Source: a virus (lineage: Duplodnaviria > Caudoviricetes). Taken from it: a stretch of DNA of 49,122 nt. Under the pieces are notes generated by a model. The model searched no databases. It had not been told where the DNA came from and saw only the letters and a program-made list of their open reading frames with translations. This document shows positions 41-42,853 of the stretch, piece after piece; within the stretch, counting starts at the first letter, position 1; every line of letters begins with the position of its first letter. The position numbers and the translations under genes were made by a program. The stretch is from IMG/VR virus record IMGVR_UViG_3300006224_000002, positions 1-49,122 of that record; one strand, 5' to 3'.

Positions 41-1056
41 CTGCACTGTCGATGGTCCCGCAGTTTATCACAATGGGCACCACTGCAGTTAAATGGCTTA
101 AAGAGATTGAGATTGCGACTCTGATTACCACCACCCGTATCAAAGCGATGGCGCCGGAACTGCTGATTATCTCCCTGGTTGCAGGTGGGGCCTATTTTAT
201 GTTCAGTGAAAGTGCGCGGGCTGCGGAGAAAGCGCAGAAATCATTCGCTGAATCGACGAGGGCTGGATTGCGGGGTACTAACGAGGAAGCGGAAAAACTG
301 AAACAAACCCTTGAAGAACTGGCAGGTTTCGGCAAGACAACGGAAGAGAAACGAGCTGTCAGGAAAGCAGAGTTCGAAGGAGAGCTGGAAGTTGCGGGAA
401 CAGACCCTGAGAAGCGGGCGGAAGCTGAAAGGAAGTATCAGAAAGATTTACTCCGTATTAGAAAAGAGGAGGCTGAAAAAGCATATGGTGCGGGGAGTCC
501 CACAGCGTTGGTTGATATCAAGTCTACAGAAAAAAGTATTCAGGAAATGGAAAGACTTGAGCGTGAACGTGGCCTTAGTATGCAGGAGCGAAAAGATCGC
601 GGGCTTGGGCCTACAAGTAAAGAACGGGTTCCGATAGAAACTGGAATTGCTCCATCATATTTAGAAGAAGTTGGATTGAGACAGAATATACAGAGAGTTC
701 AAACCACGCGTTATTTCCGTCCTGATATAATGATATCCGGGCGCGAACCTGGGCCGACCCCAACAGGCGTTTCACCTATTGACCCAGCAAGTTTTATGTA
801 TACTACACAAAAAGAAATATGGGATTCCCGGAAATCTCCAATTAATCCTTCGTGGGGCGCTGACAGGTCTGGTGCTGAAATGCAAAGCAGTAAAGAATTA
901 ACTGAGACTATGAAGACTGTTAGCGGGGATATATCGAAATCAGTGAAAGAACCGCGCGTGATGAACATTACAGTGAACGGGTACATTACTGACCTTGACC
1001 AGCTCGCTTCGGAAGTTGCGATCCGCATCGATAAATATAATTACAGAGTACAGTAA
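1..1056 (+). CDS. Tape-measure-like protein, C-terminal part (continues from 48747 across the junction; 463 aa in total)
   Basis: In frame with the ORF starting at 48747. Ala/Glu/Lys helical composition, hydrophobic stretches, C-terminal MNITVNG...DLDQLASEVA ending typical of TMPs; follows the tail tube and chaperone genes. Confidence 0.72.
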   Translation, partial: NIRANSSMVMIGLSALSMVPQFITMGTTAVKWLKEIEIATLITTTRIKAMAPELLIISLVAGGAYFMFSESARAAEKAQKSFAESTRAGLRGTNEEAEKLKQTLEELAGFGKTTEEKRAVRKAEFEGELEVAGTDPEKRAEAERKYQKDLLRIRKEEAEKAYGAGSPTALVDIKSTEKSIQEMERLERERGLSMQERKDRGLGPTSKERVPIETGIAPSYLEEVGLRQNIQRVQTTRYFRPDIMISGREPGPTPTGVSPIDPASFMYTTQKEIWDSRKSPINPSWGADRSGAEMQSSKELTETMKTVSGDISKSVKEPRVMNITVNGYITDLDQLASEVAIRIDKYNYRVQ

Positions 1057-1064
1057 GGACAAAC

Positions 1065-1646
1065 ATGAGACTTGACGAAACATACAATGCCCAGAAAACA
1101 ACAGATTATTCTTACACCTGGGGAGGAACAGCTTATACCAATATCCTTATAAGGGATACTCTTGGCGCAAATACGAGAGTTACCACATCTCAATCATTAA
1201 CTATGGGGAACGGGACGGATGCCACGACCACGATAACATGGATACTGCCGCACGTTTACAAGCGTAATACTTATCTGGATGGCATTACTGCAGGGAGCAT
1301 ACGGATAAAAGTCAGCACAGGAGCGAATCCCGGCAGCCCCTGGTTTAAGTTTCATTTTGACATTACGGTACAATCTATCGATAGTTCGGGAGTCGCCACA
1401 ACATTAGGAACCTTGACTACCGCAGAAGGTACGACATCCACGGTCCCTTCTGGTCAGTCCTTGACGATAGATGTACCTTTCTGGATCGATACGTTTAAGA
1501 AACTCTTGCCTTACAATACTAGGTTGGCTCTGAAGATCGTATATCATTTATATTGTCAGTCTTCAGATCCATTCACTGAAACCGGGTATGCCGAAATGGC
1601 ATTGAATAGTGCAGATACGTACATTCGAATTCCCTATATTCCCTGA
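1065..1646 (+). CDS. Putative minor tail / tail-tip protein
   Basis: 193 aa, Thr/Ser- and beta-rich, directly after the TMP, AGGA SD-like motif. Confidence 0.5.
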   Translation: MRLDETYNAQKTTDYSYTWGGTAYTNILIRDTLGANTRVTTSQSLTMGNGTDATTTITWILPHVYKRNTYLDGITAGSIRIKVSTGANPGSPWFKFHFDITVQSIDSSGVATTLGTLTTAEGTTSTVPSGQSLTIDVPFWIDTFKKLLPYNTRLALKIVYHLYCQSSDPFTETGYAEMALNSADTYIRIPYIP

Positions 1647-2561: not shown

Positions 2562-2683
2562 AGAATATAATTATTGTTTAAGGCATTATTAATATTTTCT
2601 TATCGCATCGTTGGGGTGCAGGGGCGCAAATAAGACTTCGCATGAAAATGCGGAAATACACAAGCCCCCGCCTTAAAGCGCAA

Positions 2684-2779
2684 TACTTGCCCCAAAAAAC
2701 AGTTGTGTAGGCTGCATTCTAGGGGCAAGCATAAACATATATAATATCGAATCATATTAAGTGTTGTGTAGGTTGCATG
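2684..2779. promoter_or_regulatory. Nuclease-leader hairpin cassette, copy A (before tnpB)
   Basis: Stem CTTGCCCC 2686-2693 / GGGGCAAG 2722-2729; A6 at 2694-2699; loop GTTGTGTAGGCTGCAT 2702-2717 repeated as GTTGTGTAGGTTGCAT 2763-2778; GCATA 2729; CATATTA 2753. Confidence 0.8.
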
Positions 2780-3946
2780 AAGAAAGCATACAAATTCAGA
2801 ATATACCCGAACAAGCATCAAGAAGTTAATCTGAACAGGACTCTTGCTACATGCAGACATCTCTACAACGATTCCCTTTCAAAGAGGAGACGGCAAGCAA
2901 AGCTTAACAACCTGTGCAGGGATTTTGGAGTATTCCCCTGGGGAAAGCCTGAATGGGTCTCATATGAAGACCAGGCTAACGACTTAGCATCATCGAAAAC
3001 CCCTGAGCAGAATGAAGTATTCTCCCAGGTCTTGCAGGATGTTCTGAGAAGGCTGGATAAGACCTTCAAGAACTTCTATCGTGGTTTCGGGTATCCAAGA
3101 TTCAAAGGAAGGAACAGGTATGATTCCTTCACCTATCCTCAAAAAGGATTTGGGCTAAAAGATGGAAAGCTAATCCTTTCAAAGATAGGTAATATCCGCA
3201 TATTCCAGCATCGTGAGATAGAAGGAACAATCAAGACATGCACGATCAAGAAGGATATTGATCAGTGGTATGTCGTATTCACAGTAGAAATCGAAAAACC
3301 TATAATCCCTGTTGAGATCATGACCAGAACAGGAATCGATGTTGGTCTGAAGTCGCTAATCACTCTTAGCAATGGAAAGCAGATAGAACCTCCTAGATTT
3401 CTGAGAGCGTCAGAGCAAAAACTTGTCTGGGAACAGAGAAAGTTAAGCAGGAAAAAGAAAGGCTCTGCTAATAGAAATAGGCAGAGATTCAAGGTAGCGA
3501 AAGTTCACAGGAAAGTCAAGAATCAGAGAAAGGACTTTGCTCATAAAACAAGCAGAGAACTTGTTAATAATTACGACTTGATAGCATTTGAGAACTTGAA
3601 CATTAGGGGTATGGTTCAGAACCATCGCCTTGCTAAATCAATCTCGGATGCTGGATGGTATCAGCTACAAACATTCACAGCATACAAAGCGGAAGATGCT
3701 GGCAAGCAGTGTAAGTTTGTAGTTTCTAACGGAACATCGCAAGAATGCAGTGTCTGCGGAAACAAGGAAATACTGACGTTAGCAGATAGGGTATTCCGAT
3801 GCTCCCGATGCGGACACATCGAAGATAGAGATGTTAATGCATCAAAAAATATCAAGAACAGAGCAGTAGGGACGGACTGTCCCGAATTAACGCCTGTGGA
3901 GAGTATGCACAAGCAACTCGTGGAAGCAGGAAGCCCCGTTCTTTAG
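2777..3946 (+). CDS. tnpB: TnpB RNA-guided endonuclease (IS200/IS605 family OrfB)
   Basis: N-terminal KAYKFRIYP, RuvC-I GIDVGLK, RuvC-II AFENL, zinc finger CSVC...CSRC, RuvC-III DRDVNAS; all three catalytic acidic residues present. Confidence 0.95.
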   Translation: MKKAYKFRIYPNKHQEVNLNRTLATCRHLYNDSLSKRRRQAKLNNLCRDFGVFPWGKPEWVSYEDQANDLASSKTPEQNEVFSQVLQDVLRRLDKTFKNFYRGFGYPRFKGRNRYDSFTYPQKGFGLKDGKLILSKIGNIRIFQHREIEGTIKTCTIKKDIDQWYVVFTVEIEKPIIPVEIMTRTGIDVGLKSLITLSNGKQIEPPRFLRASEQKLVWEQRKLSRKKKGSANRNRQRFKVAKVHRKVKNQRKDFAHKTSRELVNNYDLIAFENLNIRGMVQNHRLAKSISDAGWYQLQTFTAYKAEDAGKQCKFVVSNGTSQECSVCGNKEILTLADRVFRCSRCGHIEDRDVNASKNIKNRAVGTDCPELTPVESMHKQLVEAGSPVL

Positions 3947-3980
3947 AACGGGAGGATGTCACTTCATTTTCTTCAAGAAT
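3860..3980 (+). ncRNA. Putative TnpB omega/reRNA 3' portion with right-end hairpin and guide (5' limit uncertain)
   Basis: GAAGCCCCGTTCTTTAGAACGGGAGGATGTCAC has the stem CCCGTTC/GAACGGG with a TTTA loop and ends in TCAC at 3959-3962, typical of IS605-type right ends. Predicted guide begins TTCATTTTCTTCAAGA at 3963. Confidence 0.7.
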
Positions 3981-5074
3981 TCTAATCCCAGCCCCATGAT
4001 CTCAATCCATGCCTGTTTTTCATTCTTATGGTGGTCAATAGTTATCCCGTATGGCGACAACAGTGCGCCAGTCAAGTCAATCCCATGCACCTGGTTGTAA
4101 ACCGCTGGCATGTCGCTGTCCTGCTGCCATCCCGCTTGTTTGCAATGCTGGGAATAACTGAGGATCTGTGAAAGTTCGGTATTTCTTCCCCTGCGCGATG
4201 TGTAGAGCTGGACTTCGTTCCATCGTTCGATCCCAGCAGCCTTCGCGATCTGCTTGACGGCTTTCCTTGCAGTTTCGTATTTGATATGCTGACCTCTTCT
4301 ACCTCCGCGGATGTCTACCCAGACATGATCGTCTTGTACTTTTGTACAGTTCTTGGATTCCACGGAATCCATACTTTGTACATATGTATAATTCCTCATC
4401 TTTAGCCATGCCTTCAGCCAAGGCACCGTAAAGAATAGTGACACTACCCGCGCCCCCGTCTTGCTTTCGGGCGACAGGGTCAGGTATGCAATATCGAGGC
4501 TCACACTAACAGGAGTTCCGTTGCCGTTTGCCATCTTCGCGGGGATTGTCTCGAATCTGATATCTTCGCGTTTCAGCATGAAAAACTCGTGCGGCCTGCA
4601 GTTGGATTCATACAGGCACGCGAGCATGGCTTTATCTCGGAAATGCGGCCAGTTGCATTGACATATCTTCAGGATATCGTGAACTGTAAGGAAAAAGCGC
4701 GGGAGGATAGCTCTGGCAGATGTGGTTTTTATCTGCGTTGCCAAGGGATTATTGAGATGTTCCAGGACTCGTTTCAGGAATATTTTATAATCCCTTTTGG
4801 CTTCCGAACCGTATCCTGTATTATGCTCGATGATTGATAATGTATGATACAATGCATCTTGCGTTACATCATGAAATGAATGGAGATATCCACGCTCTAT
4901 GATGAGGCGCAGGTAAAGATAATATTTCTCTGCACGACTGTACTTTATCTTTGTCGCAAGAAGCTTGTCTATCAATGCAGTAACGGCAGACTTATCTTGT
5001 TCAGATATTGCTTTAGAAGAAAGGAACTTTTCTTTTGCCCGATCGTAATGATTTGGAATCCACGTTTTTATCAC
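3959..5074 (-). CDS. int: Tyrosine recombinase / integrase
   Basis: RDKAMLACLYESNCRPHE (R), SKTGAR (K), LYTSRRGR (H-x-x-R variant), AGW...SDMPAVY (W, catalytic Y); archaeal-type integrase; GTG start. Confidence 0.9.
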   Translation of the reverse strand: MIKTWIPNHYDRAKEKFLSSKAISEQDKSAVTALIDKLLATKIKYSRAEKYYLYLRLIIERGYLHSFHDVTQDALYHTLSIIEHNTGYGSEAKRDYKIFLKRVLEHLNNPLATQIKTTSARAILPRFFLTVHDILKICQCNWPHFRDKAMLACLYESNCRPHEFFMLKREDIRFETIPAKMANGNGTPVSVSLDIAYLTLSPESKTGARVVSLFFTVPWLKAWLKMRNYTYVQSMDSVESKNCTKVQDDHVWVDIRGGRRGQHIKYETARKAVKQIAKAAGIERWNEVQLYTSRRGRNTELSQILSYSQHCKQAGWQQDSDMPAVYNQVHGIDLTGALLSPYGITIDHHKNEKQAWIEIMGLGLEFLKKMK

Positions 5075-11225: not shown

Positions 11226-11331
11226 TACCAGTGGGTAAAAAAGCATCTTGTTCAAGAGGTGCAAGTTATCCCACTGGCATAGGTTTTATATGTCTTGCGG
11301 GATATTATACTTTCTGTTCAAGAGGTGAATG
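11226..11331. promoter_or_regulatory. Nuclease-leader hairpin cassette, copy D
   Basis: Stem CCAGTGGG 11228-11235 / CCCACTGG 11270-11277; A6 at 11237-11242; TGTTCAAGAGGTG at 11249-11261 and 11315-11327; GCATA 11277; GATATTA 11301. Confidence 0.8.
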
Positions 11332-11757
11332 ATGCAGATCTCAGGTCCAAAACCAAATAATTATTTTCATAACAATCCTAAAACAAGAGATTTCATTATA
11401 GCATCAACCAATAAAATTATACGTGGTAAGAAAAGAGCGTTTCCTACAAACAGATCGTGTGAGATTTGCCATTATAAACCTTTAAAGAAACTTGATTACC
11501 ATCACTGGGACGATTCTAAACCAATCAGAGGTCTGTGGGTTTGCGGAGTTTGTCATAAACAAATACATAAATTTGAAAATGGCGAACCTATTAAACAAGG
11601 CAGATTTTCTTGGGAAGCGTGTCTCGATAGATATCTCAAATTGAAAAAGGAAATTGATGCAGGTAAAAATCTCTTGACTAAATCTCGCAGGCAGTTGTTA
11701 TCTCTGCATCAAAAGATTATGGCCAATGCCATTTTTGGGTTGGATGTGGTATTGTGA
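11329..11757 (+). CDS. HNH-like (His-Me finger) endonuclease
   Basis: CEICH...LDYHHWDD...LWVCGVCHKQIH. Confidence 0.65.
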   Translation: MMQISGPKPNNYFHNNPKTRDFIIASTNKIIRGKKRAFPTNRSCEICHYKPLKKLDYHHWDDSKPIRGLWVCGVCHKQIHKFENGEPIKQGRFSWEACLDRYLKLKKEIDAGKNLLTKSRRQLLSLHQKIMANAIFGLDVVL

Positions 11758-11765
11758 TGTTATTT

Positions 11766-12105
11766 TGTTTACATTTATGTTTACAAAAAGTAAACAACTT
11801 TGTTTACACTTATAAAGAAAAAGTGTTTACATTTCTGTTTACATGTAAACACTTTTTACCGACGGGTATCTATCAGATTATGAAAAACAGGGTTTTTATA
11901 ACCGAGGGTAATAAACAGGTGAAGAAACTTGGAATAGTAATTTTATAATAATCGATTACTAATTGTATATATTATAGGAGTTGTATGTTATTATTTGATG
12001 GTGTTATAATAAAAACGGTGAATAAAAACGGTGGGCGACCTGTTTACAAAGGCAGTGTTTACAGTAAACAAATTTGTTTACATTTAGTAAACGGTGGTGT
12101 TTACA
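11766..12105. repeat. Two clusters of TGTTTAC(A) repeats around an AT-rich spacer; candidate replication origin
   Basis: Forward copies at 11766, 11778, 11801, 11824, 11836, 12041, 12056, 12075, 12098; reverse copies at 11790, 11844, 12064, 12087; tandem AATAAAAACGGTG x2 at 12008-12033. Confidence 0.75.
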
Positions 12106-12106
12106 T

Positions 12107-12424
12107 ATGACTGAACGGCAAATGGTGCAAATCCCGAAGGATAGCGAAGTTTACAAATATCTATTCGAATCTGACCACCCAATGCTTGCGAAATGGGAAG
12201 TTCTGGAACAAATAGTCAAACAACTGCCACAGTCAAAACAAGACCGCGCATATAAACAATTCTGTTCATTTGTGGATGAAATGAATATTTTATATCCAGG
12301 TTCATCTGAATGTCTGATGTTGCTGTGGAGGTTCATCTCAAAACGGATAATGAAAGTACCTGACCTGGACGGGAACCATGTTGCACTTGATAATTCATAT
12401 TTTGAGGAGCTGAAAAAGATATGA
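12107..12424 (+). CDS. Hypothetical protein next to the repeat array
   Basis: ATG 12107 after GGTGG; ATGA coupling to the next ORF. Confidence 0.55.
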   Translation: MTERQMVQIPKDSEVYKYLFESDHPMLAKWEVLEQIVKQLPQSKQDRAYKQFCSFVDEMNILYPGSSECLMLLWRFISKRIMKVPDLDGNHVALDNSYFEELKKI

Positions 12425-18684: not shown

Positions 18685-18840
18685 ATAAAGGAACAAACAT
18701 GAGTATTGAATCCGGCGAGCTGAGATTGTGGGAACCAACGGGGATAGAACAGTATAATCCGCCTTTATTGCTTGTTGCGTTGGCATTTGTATTGATTATT
18801 GTCTTACTATATCTTCTGTTATTCACATTACCTTAAAATC

Positions 18841-19647
18841 ATGCCCACCGAACTTGAACAATTCATCGAAAAGCTGAACAGGATCATCAAAGACCTGAAG
18901 CGCAGGCAGAGTGATGCACTTGCCAGGCACATCGCAACATCGTTCACCCTCGGATATCAGAAAGGTAAGATCGTGCCCGGTGGATATCCGAACGAGAGGA
19001 GCCTGCAGCGAAGAGCGATAGAAGAACTCACGACAACTAACCTGGGATACCTGGACGAGTTTGATTCTGCGCTTGGGGACAAGTTGAAAGGACACCTACA
19101 GGAAGTCATAAAGGTCGGTGGCGGGTATGAAGATGTTCGAAGAAATCTTGTACCTTACGTTGAAGAAGTCTTCGGGGAAAACGGGCAAGTAACGATTGAC
19201 CGCACAGGCCAGACCAGGGAGATCATCACTGTAGACCAGGACGGAAACCTACACAGAGAACAGAAGACCATCCAGGAGCCTTACACGACCTCGGTAAAGG
19301 CTTATAGCGAAATGTTAAGCAGGACGGTAGCCCATTCCTCCTACGCAAAAGGCCGTGCTACGGGTTATAAGGCATCAGGGATAGAAAAACTTCGCGTAGT
19401 GGTAATGCAGGACGAGAGGGCCAGGGCTTCCCACCTCGCCGTTCACGGGAAAATAATTGAGATCGGGAGTCCTGAAGAACAGATGATTTTAGACCTGCAT
19501 TCTGAACCAAACTGCAGGTGCAGAACGATTCCATATTTGGATAATAATCTGGATACCCCGAACTCAGTTTATGAAAAGCAGAAAGATAAATTTGATTTAA
19601 AGTTCGAGAATGGAGAATGGATGTTTAACAAGTTACCTGCCCTTTAA
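18841..19647 (+). CDS. Head morphogenesis protein (MuF / SPP1 gp7-like)
   Basis: SEMLSRT...DERARASHLAVHG...EPNCRC. Confidence 0.82.
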   Translation: MPTELEQFIEKLNRIIKDLKRRQSDALARHIATSFTLGYQKGKIVPGGYPNERSLQRRAIEELTTTNLGYLDEFDSALGDKLKGHLQEVIKVGGGYEDVRRNLVPYVEEVFGENGQVTIDRTGQTREIITVDQDGNLHREQKTIQEPYTTSVKAYSEMLSRTVAHSSYAKGRATGYKASGIEKLRVVVMQDERARASHLAVHGKIIEIGSPEEQMILDLHSEPNCRCRTIPYLDNNLDTPNSVYEKQKDKFDLKFENGEWMFNKLPAL

Positions 19648-19736
19648 AAAACGATTGCTAAGGTCGGATTTCAAGGGCAGGCATAATTATATATGTTTAC
19701 AAAGCATATTAGTGTTTGCTAAGGTCGGCAAACATG
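19634..19736. promoter_or_regulatory. Nuclease-leader hairpin cassette, copy B
   Basis: Stem CCTGCCCTT 19636-19644 / AAGGGCAGG 19673-19681; A6 at 19646-19651; TTGCTAAGGTCGG at 19655-19667 and 19716-19728; GCATA 19681; CATATTA 19705. Confidence 0.8.
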
Positions 19737-20564
19737 AAGTATAATCAAACGGATTCTAAGGGAAGATTCGTTCCCGGGATTAAAATAACCAAAATATGCT
19801 TGAATTGCGGAAAGAAATTTATAGTTAATACAAGCGGTGTTTATCGAAAATATTGCTCGCATGTTTGTTCAATAAAGCATAAAATAAAAACAGGCCATTG
19901 TTTAAAACGAGCACAAAAACCATGCATTCAGTGTGGTAAACCTATAATAGAACGTCCATCGAAGGTAAAACGTCGAAAATTCTGTTCTTACAAATGCAGT
20001 GTGGAAGCAAGAAAAAATAGGATAAAGCGAGAATGCCCCACATGCAAAAGCGAATTTATTACAAAACCAAGCCAAATTATTAATGGAAAAGGAATTTATT
20101 GTTCGCATCGTTGTTGGTGTAAATCTCGAAACGAGGTAGCAATGGTAACTATACATTGCGAAAATTGCGGCAAAGAGTTTAAGATGTTGCGTTCTAACGC
20201 ATTGCATACAGCAACAGACAATTCACAGCGAGTATTGTTTTGTTCACGAGCATGTTATTATGATTCTGAAAATTTCAAAGACAAAATGGAACGTTTGAAA
20301 CCTCCAAAAGGTAAGTTAAATAAAAACTGGTGCGGAGGTGCAAAAATATCACGAAGTCGGTTTCGTCATCGAAGAGCAAACAAAGGATTTATAATTATCT
20401 CTGATAAAGTTCCATATGACGAACCAATTGAATATCATCATCCTCATCCAAATCTTCCTTTTGTTGTTCCATGTCCAGCAAGGATTCATAAGATGTTTGT
20501 TGGTGCAAATAAAAACCATTTTAGAAATGTAAATGCAATGTTAGGTTTAAAGTTAAAATTCTAA
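19734..20564 (+). CDS. Putative homing endonuclease: four CxxC...(Y/F)CSxxC zinc repeats plus C-terminal His-rich nuclease-like domain
   Basis: Repeats CLNCG/YCSHVC, CIQCG/FCSYKC, CPTCK/YCSHRC, CENCG/FCSRAC; NKNWCGG; YHHPHP...PCPARIH. Confidence 0.7.
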   Translation: MKYNQTDSKGRFVPGIKITKICLNCGKKFIVNTSGVYRKYCSHVCSIKHKIKTGHCLKRAQKPCIQCGKPIIERPSKVKRRKFCSYKCSVEARKNRIKRECPTCKSEFITKPSQIINGKGIYCSHRCWCKSRNEVAMVTIHCENCGKEFKMLRSNALHTATDNSQRVLFCSRACYYDSENFKDKMERLKPPKGKLNKNWCGGAKISRSRFRHRRANKGFIIISDKVPYDEPIEYHHPHPNLPFVVPCPARIHKMFVGANKNHFRNVNAMLGLKLKF

Positions 20565-41891: not shown

Positions 41892-41998
41892 TACCCAACC
41901 CATAAAAAAGCATGTCTTAGGTGCTTGATATTTAGGTTGGGCATACTTATTTATGTCATCAATACATATTAAGTGTTGTCTTAGGTGTATTGAGAATG
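41892..41998. promoter_or_regulatory. Nuclease-leader hairpin cassette, copy C
   Basis: Stem CCCAACC 41894-41900 / GGTTGGG 41935-41941; A6 at 41904-41909; TGTCTTAGGTG at 41913-41923 and 41977-41987; GCATA 41941; CATATTA 41965. Confidence 0.8.
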
Positions 41999-42853
41999 AA
42001 TAAAAATAAATATCCCAAAATACCGACATTGTGTTTATGTGGGTGCAACGAAATCGTGTGGGGGGGTAGCAGATTTATCCGAGGGCATAATTCGATTAGT
42101 GATAACCCCTCGAAACGAGATGATATAAAAGAAAAAATATCTTTGGCTTTGCGGGGTAGAAATGTAACGTGGGGTATAAAAATATCTTCATCGAAGAAAG
42201 GGCGCCCCTCAAAGAATAAAGGGAGAAAGACGGGTAAACCATCGTGGAACCGTGGCATTCCGCAAAGCGAAGAAACAAAGAAAAAAGCCTCTCTAAAATT
42301 AAAAGGGCACATCCCTTGGAATAAGGGGAAAAAACTTGGTCATTGTGTAAACAGCGGGCAGTTTCAAAAAGGAAACATTCCTTGGAGTAAAACAACCCAA
42401 TATTCCGAAGAGAGTCGTAAGAAGATGTCCCTATCTCATATTGGTAAATCCGTAAATGTGGGCGAAAAGAATGGAATGTTTGGAAAACCGTCGTATTGGC
42501 GAGGAAAGAAACAGAATCCAGAACATATGAAACGGTTGATAGAAGCAAACAGGGGGCGAACTCCTTGGAATAAAGGAAAAAAGCTTCCAGAATATTCTGG
42601 GTTAAATCATCCGAGATGGAGGGGGGGTAAAAAAGTAGCTAACGCTAGAATGCATCATATACGGAGAATGAGGGGATTTAAATTAATTATAAAAAACAAT
42701 CCGTATAACGAACCGATTGATTATCATCATATTCATCCCAACTTGCCCTATGTCGTGCCGTGTCCAAAAAGGATACACCAGATGTTTCCAGGCTCTGAAA
42801 GAACGCATTTTCAAAACGTGAATGCGATGTTGGGGATTAAACTAGCGGTTTAA
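41996..42853 (+). CDS. Putative homing endonuclease: NUMOD3-type repeats plus C-terminal His-rich nuclease-like domain
   Basis: CLCGC...FIRGHN; SEETKKK, SEESRKKMS, PWNKG, GEKNGMFGK repeats; NHPRWRGG; YHHIHP...PCPKRIH (TTG 41990 is an alternative start). Confidence 0.75.
   Translation: MNKNKYPKIPTLCLCGCNEIVWGGSRFIRGHNSISDNPSKRDDIKEKISLALRGRNVTWGIKISSSKKGRPSKNKGRKTGKPSWNRGIPQSEETKKKASLKLKGHIPWNKGKKLGHCVNSGQFQKGNIPWSKTTQYSEESRKKMSLSHIGKSVNVGEKNGMFGKPSYWRGKKQNPEHMKRLIEANRGRTPWNKGKKLPEYSGLNHPRWRGGKKVANARMHHIRRMRGFKLIIKNNPYNEPIDYHHIHPNLPYVVPCPKRIHQMFPGSERTHFQNVNAMLGIKLAV

Follow-up and report, generated by a model that had tools for sequence, protein, structure and literature searches.

A module repeated ahead of four nuclease genes

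Positions 19634-19736 of the window, by which we mean the whole 49,122-bp stretch of DNA analysed here, hold a compact plus-strand module that ends in the start codon of a nuclease gene. A preliminary description of this DNA had reported the module here and at three other places, and this basic observation is confirmed: the 49-kb window carries four plus-strand modules of about 100 bases each, every one 5' of a nuclease gene. Read from its 5' end, a module consists of TAC, a 5' arm of 7-9 nt, 0-3 nt, AAAAAA (A6), 2-6 nt, a first box (box1) of 11-16 nt, a further 5-11 nt, a 3' arm, CATA, 20 nt, ATATTA, 3-7 nt, a second box (box2), 0-9 nt and ATG. The arms are G+C-rich, and box1, in the loop of the hairpin, is a repeat of box2, which is the nuclease gene's own Shine-Dalgarno leader. 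Positions 3-10 of the 20-nt stretch between CATA and ATATTA form a TATA-like octamer. The parts of copy C, at the locus under study, and of copies A, B and D are as follows.

19634-19736, plus strand: copy C module
19634-19685, minus strand: copy C hairpin, from TAC to CATA; the minus-strand reading adds a G-U pair to the stem
19634-19636: TAC of copy C
19636-19644: 5' arm of copy C, CCTGCCCTT
19646-19651: A6 of copy C
19655-19667: box1 of copy C, TTGCTAAGGTCGG
19673-19681: 3' arm of copy C, AAGGGCAGG
19681-19685: GCATA of copy C
19687-19711: putative promoter core of copy C
19687-19694: TATA-like TTATATAT of copy C, putatively serving the plus-strand mRNA
19706-19711: ATATTA of copy C, TAATAT on the minus strand, candidate TATA box for an antisense RNA
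19716-19728: box2 of copy C, TTGCTAAGGTCGG, containing the Shine-Dalgarno AAGGT
19716-19736, plus strand: leader of the copy C nuclease mRNA, with ATG at 19734-19736
2684-2779, plus strand: copy A module; arms 2686-2693 and 2722-2729, A6 2694-2699, box1 2702-2717, GCATA 2729-2733, ATATTA 2754-2759, box2 2763-2778, ATG at 2777
11226-11331, plus strand: copy B module; arms 11228-11235 and 11270-11277, A6 11237-11242, box1 11249-11261, GCATA 11277-11281, ATATTA 11302-11307, box2 11315-11327, ATG at 11329
41892-41998, plus strand: copy D module; arms 41894-41900 and 41935-41941, A6 41904-41909, box1 41913-41923, GCATA 41941-41945, ATATTA 41966-41971, box2 41977-41987, ATG at 41996

The pattern AAAAAA-N18-36-GCATA-N2-14-TAT occurs four times in the window, always on the plus strand, with an expectation of 0.30 and none of 100 shuffles reaching four, and GCATA-N20-ATATTA matches exactly at the four module sites only. 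Every one of the four boxes occurs exactly twice in the window without a mismatch; a search of the virus genome for a further occurrence, such as might be a TnpB guide or a homing site, found none for any box.

The genes behind the four modules encode proteins of different nuclease families.

2777-3946, plus strand: tnpB (copy A), 389 aa, matching PF01385 (E 5.5e-29), PF07282 (1.4e-21) and PF12323 (4.2e-14)
11329-11757, plus strand: copy B gene, 142 aa, matching a PHROG 'endonuclease' family
19734-20564, plus strand: copy C gene, 276 aa, with zinc-ribbon repeats and a C-terminal HNH-like domain
41996-42853, plus strand: copy D gene, 285 aa, with NUMOD3 and an HNH-like C-terminus

The copy C protein matches the HNH endonuclease family phrog_1271 (E 1.3e-15), and its HNH-like domain is 59% identical to that of the copy D protein. 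Viral contigs contained no close relatives of the copy C protein or of the Mu-F-like protein encoded upstream of it, and a sequence search of the copy C protein against solved structures returned nothing meaningful. The copy D protein found distant NUMOD3 matches only, all without the module, and a search with the HNH domain common to C and D yielded no relatives.

The virus and its probable host

The window is a complete virus record with direct terminal repeats at its ends. It encodes a terminase, a Mu-F-like head protein, a tail tube protein and a 1785-aa tail protein, together with RecT, an integrase and a protein whose repeats are related to disaggregatase. The host is probably an archaeon, and a methanogen: the best match of the copy A TnpB in the phage collection (49.9% identity) belongs to a virus annotated with host Methanosarcinales, relatives of this TnpB at E <= 1e-80 (45-59% identity) occur in 24 of 301 genomes from the phylum of a 'Euryarchaeota archaeon' assembly, and a Halorubrum virus is among the matches listed for the terminase. 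Neither the portal protein nor the disaggregatase-repeat protein had a match in the phage collection. Because the host is probably a methanogenic archaeon, promoters and terminators were read by archaeal rules, under which a TATA box lies about 25 nt 5' of the start and an oligo-T tract is a terminator.

Movement of the module between nuclease genes

Copy A is part of a mobile element.

2610-3962, plus strand: IS200/IS605-type, TnpB-only element of copy A, with the module inside its left end, before tnpB

The element has both the IS200/IS605 TnpB domains (OrfB_IS605 and the zinc-ribbon TNB) and defined hairpin ends, namely a small hairpin at the left end (about 2634-2654) and one at the right end followed by 10 nt ending in GTCAC. 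Its limits were placed where homology with a further module-bearing contig, L251, ends; the two share 77% DNA identity over window positions 2609-3962 only. At the 3' end (3867-3971), where such an element would encode its guide (omega) RNA, the Rfam matches scored below their gathering thresholds (HgcC, E 0.87; RAGATH-18, E 0.0023). Relatives of this TnpB at up to 59% identity, in cells and in other viruses, have similar left ends without the module. In another contig, L254, the left end, the module and the first 11 tnpB codons are 87% identical to window positions 2600-2814 and run on in frame into the coding sequence of a zinc-ribbon protein, 353 aa long, from the PHROG family to which the copy C protein belongs. 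The boxes of L254 are those of copy A, yet a different nuclease lies downstream. This fusion indicates, therefore, that the module moved by recombination between unrelated nuclease genes, and the sequence of the boxes is independent of the DNA-binding specificity of the protein that follows.

Copies outside the window

Nine additional copies were found in other viral and metagenomic contigs, which brings the total to 13 distinct copies. Six of these precede tnpB, and the others precede genes for HNH-like proteins, an endonuclease-I/resolvase-like protein with NUMOD3 (L205), a NUMOD3 homing-endonuclease-like protein (G305) and a 51-aa open reading frame (G001). The 13 copies are related, and as such the counts over copies given below are not counts of independent events.

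A strict motif scan returned two stretches in viral contigs, one of them true (L205), and 47 in metagenome contigs, of which two were true (L251 and L254), four were the window's own and the others were false; in contigs of species-representative genomes none of 32 stretches was true. A loose scan over 12 of the 64 parts of the viral contigs gave at least 119 stretches, all of them chance apart from the loci of the window. The search with the TnpB protein led to L287, L288, L289 and L291, in which the motifs have partly drifted: A6 is reduced to A4-A5, GCATA has become GCAAA or ACAAA, and ATATTA has become ATATAA or ATATAG. A motif-free detector, defined by a perfect G+C-rich stem, a loop of 22-40 nt and 10 of 11 bases shared 20-80 nt downstream, regained all these copies and brought to light two more, in G305 and G001, where the module lies on the minus strand of the record. 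Once the loop also had to contain an A-run, the detector returned from the collected loci family members only, plus the doubtful L315. TnpB relatives at 45% identity or below in viral contigs had no module, and neither had those at 45-59% identity in the phylum searched, where the gene start was readable in 10 of the 15 loci taken. Other short direct repeats are present at some module-free TnpB relatives (L313, L294).

A hairpin stem under selection

The two arms of the stem differ in nearly every copy but stay perfectly complementary. In a minus-strand alignment of 11 copies, the outer seven stem pairs show standard pairing in 94.7% of 75 cells, a value that falls to 12-44% when the partner columns are shifted by 1-3. 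Changes on both sides of a pair occur at four of the seven pairs (14 cells), and none of 500 shuffles equalled this. Judged from this alignment, the hairpin stem is kept by compensatory change and is under selection, and the module is, on the evidence of its copies, a real, conserved and portable unit on which selection acts. Rfam gave no match at gathering score over the whole window, and none at E <= 1 in 19560-19800.

Boxes that change together

Among the 13 copies there are about 11 different boxes (counted by eye rather than by script), and within a copy box1 and box2 are identical or have one or two differences. Despite the DNA identity of copy A and L251, their boxes differ at 5 of 12 positions, each change being present in both boxes. 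That the boxes differ between copies while box1 tracks box2 points to recognition by nucleic-acid pairing, and not to a protein operator.

Local alignment showed the whole loop to be a degenerate duplicate of the stretch that begins with the ATATTA hexamer and ends with the AT of the start codon, with the A-run aligned to the hexamer and the ATG turned into ATT or another non-start. The module therefore arose by duplication of the promoter and leader, which bears out the proposal in the preliminary description that it was built by leader duplication. In L287, a 61-nt unit of box, 3' arm and promoter is present twice in tandem, resulting in three boxes, of which the middle one is a hybrid with its crossover within TGCAT; unequal recombination therefore does occur at these repeats, and part of the homogenisation of the boxes could be mechanical rather than selected. 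Both the L287 arrangement and the plain descent of the loop from the leader region would suit an explanation by concerted evolution, in which unequal recombination or slippage of a unit of about 61 nt keeps the boxes alike and box1 has no role in pairing. We consider this unlikely, and likewise its corollary that the hairpin serves some other purpose, such as a structure in read-through plus-strand RNA or an insulator. The arms around box1 covary, which argues that the upstream copy is under selection, and the flanks of the boxes stay different (A6 against ATATTA, ATT against ATG) while the 11-16 nt between them stay alike. Furthermore, copy A, L254, L287 and the more distant L289 have all retained a C/T difference at mid-box, although other positions have changed in both boxes, and frequent conversion would be expected to wipe out such a difference.

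Less probable again is an explanation by twin operators, in which the nuclease, or a repressor of the virus or host, attaches to the DNA of both boxes and shuts down the promoter that they flank, much as I-TevI represses its own promoter. Two identical sites on either side of a promoter, 59-66 bp apart, are what such an arrangement would look like, and HNH-type proteins with NUMOD3 or zinc-ribbon modules have the means to bind DNA. The same layout is present, however, at TnpB, which finds DNA by means of a guide RNA; tnpB genes whose proteins are 64-81% identical have different boxes before them, and L254 combines the boxes of copy A with another nuclease. The spacing is out of helical phase, and an operator would need neither the hairpin nor the A6 tract.

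Which strand acts

Pairing between the boxes needs one of them to be read antisense, since copies in the same sense are unable to pair. Several features of the sequence hint that the minus strand is the one that acts. The preliminary description had the stem closed by TA-C...G-CA, which holds in all four window copies, and was correct that the A/C opposition on the plus strand reads as G-U on the minus strand. Across the 11 aligned copies the closing pair on the minus strand is G-U in ten and G-C in one (L287), the latter being a substitution of the sort that an RNA helix would be expected to show. Counted over 13 hairpins, wobble pairs adjoining the Watson-Crick core are minus-only in 15 cases and plus-only in none. 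The predicted free energy of the hairpin is lower for the minus strand in 10 of the 13 copies, near-equal in two and higher in one, and the predicted minus-strand fold puts the centre of the anti-box in the apical loop.

Promoter-like and terminator-like elements can also be read on this strand. ATATTA becomes TAATAT, 20 nt before TATGC as had been described, and across the copies the hexamer reads TAATAT, TTATAT or CTATAT, variants that are still TATA-like. Wherever the spacing was read, 19-21 nt separate the hexamer from the base of the hairpin. A T-G step follows TAATAT by about 23 nt; archaeal promoters start with a pyrimidine at -1 and a purine at +1, which T-G fits. The minus-strand starts suggested earlier (2732, 11280, 19684 and 41944) lie within 2 nt of those that we predict from this geometry (2730, 11278, 19682 and 41942). 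The conversion of A6 to T6, 2-6 nt beyond the antisense box, was likewise found as described in the window, and over all copies the A-run gives T4-T6 at that distance past the anti-box, with exactly six in 9 of 13 by reading. These minus-strand features are passed on as a set and do not count as independent events, and GCATA and ATATTA could just as well belong to the plus-strand promoter alone, as its BRE and -10 element. The U-tract lies inside the hairpin loop, and as such an RNA that stops at T6 lacks the second arm and leaves the conserved hairpin (5' arm and TAC) unexplained; the hairpin would then require read-through or another function.

The preliminary description had also argued from C-versus-T differences between the boxes, which remain G-U wobbles if the minus-strand loop pairs with the mRNA. 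The example in copy A (C2712 against T2773) is correct; that of C41924 against T41988 is correct as a difference but lies one base outside the shared 11-mer. The latter belongs to the fourth copy, called copy C in that description and copy D here. As a general argument it did not reach significance, with eight compatible (G-U) and four incompatible (A-C) transitions in 10 copies; three of the eight compatible transitions fall at one site, and the differences between box1 and box2 include 15 transversions as well. A narrower pattern is suggestive support for the proposed pairing: the core-box differences fall on Shine-Dalgarno positions, at which box2 has the Shine-Dalgarno base and the base in box1 would still form G-U with the mRNA, as seen in copy A, L289, L205, L291 and the minus-strand copy of G305.

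The predicted duplex energy of the proposed orientation was better than that of the reverse orientation in four of nine copies and worse in five, and it was dropped as uninformative on orientation. That the reverse orientation gives equally good duplexes favours other forms of pairing, in which the plus-strand loop of read-through transcripts is paired by an RNA complementary to the real leader, or the plus-strand loop is itself a guide or decoy, for example for an RNA-guided repressor of the host as in CreTA, and read-through transcripts from upstream virus genes must in any case contain the plus-strand hairpin. We give these forms no more weight than the twin operators: an RNA antisense to the leader has no conserved promoter-like element, the wobble positions adjoining the stem are minus-strand only, the stems vary by copy and offer no conserved repeat-like handle to a Cas-type protein, and in such an orientation five of the differences in the core boxes would come out as A-C mismatches, compared with one or two under the proposed one. 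A plus-strand read-through structure that sequesters box2 is rejected, as none was common to the nine copies folded.

Proposed antisense control

The reading that we prefer, and whose chances of being right and wrong we hold to be about equal, is that the module is a portable control unit from which a predicted minus-strand antisense RNA blocks translation of the nuclease. With a direct copy of the leader on each side, the promoter region would fire in both directions. Its rightward product would be an mRNA whose first 11-20 nt are box2, Shine-Dalgarno included. Leftward, transcription driven from TAATAT would start at the G of TATGC, and the U6 tract would be a site of termination or of Lsm binding; the RNA would be 35-42 nt long with a stop at U6, or about 50-56 nt with the full hairpin. 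For copy C the shorter form is the following.

19646-19682, minus strand: predicted copy C antisense RNA, 37 nt, starting at the G of TATGC (19682), ending in U6 and containing the complement of box1

The loop of the antisense RNA would pair with the 5' end of the mRNA, its Shine-Dalgarno and the AU of its start codon, and translation would thereby be blocked. The predicted duplex of the copy C RNA with its own leader has an energy of -23.8 kcal/mol, and the predicted antisense/leader duplexes have means of -22.3 kcal/mol for cognate and -11.3 kcal/mol for non-cognate combinations. Given this gap, the four copies would therefore act independently of each other. Masking of a ribosome-binding site has an archaeal precedent in sRNA162 of Methanosarcina mazei, according to the part of its description drawn on here (PMC3510493).

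The fuller proposal, which we hold a shade more tentatively, is of a self-specifying governor, in which a divergent hairpin RNA that presents the complement of the leader controls the nuclease, recombination swaps the cassette between TnpB transposons and several homing endonuclease gene families of archaeal tailed viruses, and private boxes prevent cross-talk. We know of no described type-I-like trans-antisense control in an archaeal virus, and of no shared regulatory cassette that links RNA-guided and protein-guided selfish nucleases. A full-text literature search with related terms turned up no description of such a module, which does not prove that none has been published.

Comparison with known systems

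The toxin of a type I toxin-antitoxin system is a small (<60 aa), usually hydrophobic peptide. The proteins downstream of the four modules, at 389, 142, 276 and 285 aa and with matches to nuclease families, place the module outside this class. The preliminary description had likened it to a type I pair, and what stands of this is the layout. In the sections of PMC4147584 drawn on here, tisB/istR-1, zorO/orzO, shoB/ohsC and dinQ/agrB each have a divergent repressor RNA gene upstream of the target, the RNA shares short complementarity with the target 5' UTR, and a direct repeat lies on either side of the promoter region, as in our module, where the complementarity between the predicted antisense RNA and the leader is 11-16 nt in all four window copies. 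Membership does not stand, as the toxins are small membrane peptides whereas the module genes encode nucleases of 142-389 aa. According to the same sections, divergent type I antitoxins avoid the translation start (PMC4147584), in contrast to the module, in which the match takes in the Shine-Dalgarno and extends as far as the start codon. Divergent type I loci are bacterial, whereas the module is probably in an archaeal virus and its RNA is predicted.

Mobile elements are also known to limit themselves by antisense RNA. RNA-OUT of IS10, acting on RNA-IN, and art200 of IS200 are small antisense RNAs that pair with the transposase mRNA at its 5' end and ribosome-binding site, and in RNA-OUT the pairing region is in a hairpin loop. 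The module, with its predicted RNA, would work alike. The IS10 and IS200 RNAs are, however, cis-antisense to the leader that they target, whereas the template in the module is a separate duplicate about 60 nt upstream; regulator and target can as such diverge, and must co-evolve. The module was not assigned to the cis-antisense class, as box1 lies 59-66 nt upstream of box2, beyond the promoter.

Homing endonuclease genes of the T4 type are controlled by their own (late) promoter and an upstream hairpin that sequesters the ribosome-binding site, in addition to the autorepression of I-TevI. They share with the module an own promoter and an upstream hairpin inside a virus operon. The T4 hairpin holds the real Shine-Dalgarno, whereas that of the module holds a copy of it; assignment to the T4 type was rejected, since 59-66 nt separate the hairpin from the real Shine-Dalgarno (box2) downstream of it, and the nine folded copies have no sequestration in common. 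A CRISPR-repressed module like CreTA was also rejected, as its guide would need CRISPR-repeat-like flanks conserved between copies and the stem arms differ in nearly every copy.

A likeness in target comes from Halobacterium salinarum, in which an antisense RNA together with SmAP1 has been proposed to bind a TnpB transcript at its 5' end and repress its translation, in the excerpted text of PMC10134880. The target is the 5' end of a TnpB mRNA, as is predicted for the module, but that excerpt speaks neither of a duplicated leader or a hairpin module nor of any sharing with homing endonuclease genes (PMC10134880). In the module, the U-tract adjoining the pairing region would suit an Lsm protein.

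Implications for selfish nucleases in archaeal viruses

Selfish nucleases such as TnpB and homing endonucleases must be restrained inside the small genomes that carry them. To our knowledge, little is known of how archaeal viruses achieve this. If the proposed control is true, duplicated-leader antisense regulation, known from a few bacterial toxin loci, would also operate in archaeal viruses, and the module would be a testable case of the control of TnpB expression. A single regulatory cassette would be movable between unrelated nuclease genes, of which L254 is a direct example, and diversification of its boxes would keep several copies in one genome orthogonal. Such modules may also provide compact, sequence-programmable pairs of repressor and target for archaeal genetics.

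Ends and neighbours of the module copies

The features of the window that adjoin or belong to the module-bearing genes are as follows.

2610-3962, TnpB element (copy A), with right end GTCAC at 3962
3959-5074, minus strand, integrase ORF, convergent with the TnpB element
18799-19647, Mu-F-like gene upstream of copy C, with stop codon at 19645-19647
20328-20561 (copy C) and 42617-42850 (copy D), common C-terminal domain, pattern YHHxHPNLP...CPxRIH

At its right end (3962), the TnpB element overlaps the 3' terminus of the integrase ORF by 3-4 nt. A guide (omega) RNA would be expected at the 3' end of tnpB, and two sub-threshold Rfam matches at 3867-3971, to HgcC (E 0.87) and RAGATH-18 (E 0.0023), both overlap this end of the gene. 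The stop codon of the Mu-F-like gene sits directly beyond the 5' arm of the copy C hairpin, overlapping the first bases of the AAAAAA tract in its loop, and the final codons of this gene therefore fall inside the arm. The proteins encoded by copies C and D have a 76-aa C-terminal domain in common (59% identity), which from its residue pattern looks like an HNH motif; relatives of this domain were sought in viral contigs and none were found. In the gap 3' of the copy B gene (11760-12110), GTTTACA/TGTAAAC words are clustered in both orientations, an arrangement that looks like iterons or operator sites and perhaps marks an origin or a regulatory region.

Direct repeats and rearranged modules at other loci

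Two cellular TnpB loci (L313 and L306) have a distinct short direct repeat, CCTATAGGTA or similar, flanking the promoter region immediately upstream of tnpB without a hairpin, and at a further TnpB locus (L294) the repeated sequence, ATACAACTTG, includes the start codon. The module itself is found in altered settings outside the window. In record L254, a copy-A-like module precedes a chimeric gene (162-1223, minus strand) that joins in frame the first 11 codons of tnpB and a 353-aa zinc-ribbon endonuclease-like protein. In record L287, at 1346-1503, a 61-nt unit made up of box, 3' arm and promoter has been duplicated in tandem, so that tnpB is preceded by two promoters and by three boxes, of which the middle one is a hybrid of the loop copy and the leader copy. 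Finally, a full module with a box pair identical over 12 nt lies on the minus strand of L286 (G001) at about 2560-2690, where its sole downstream ORF is of 51 aa, and module and ORF occupy a 364-nt gap between structural genes of the plus strand. This module may be a leftover after loss of a nuclease gene, or it may be the control unit of a small gene.
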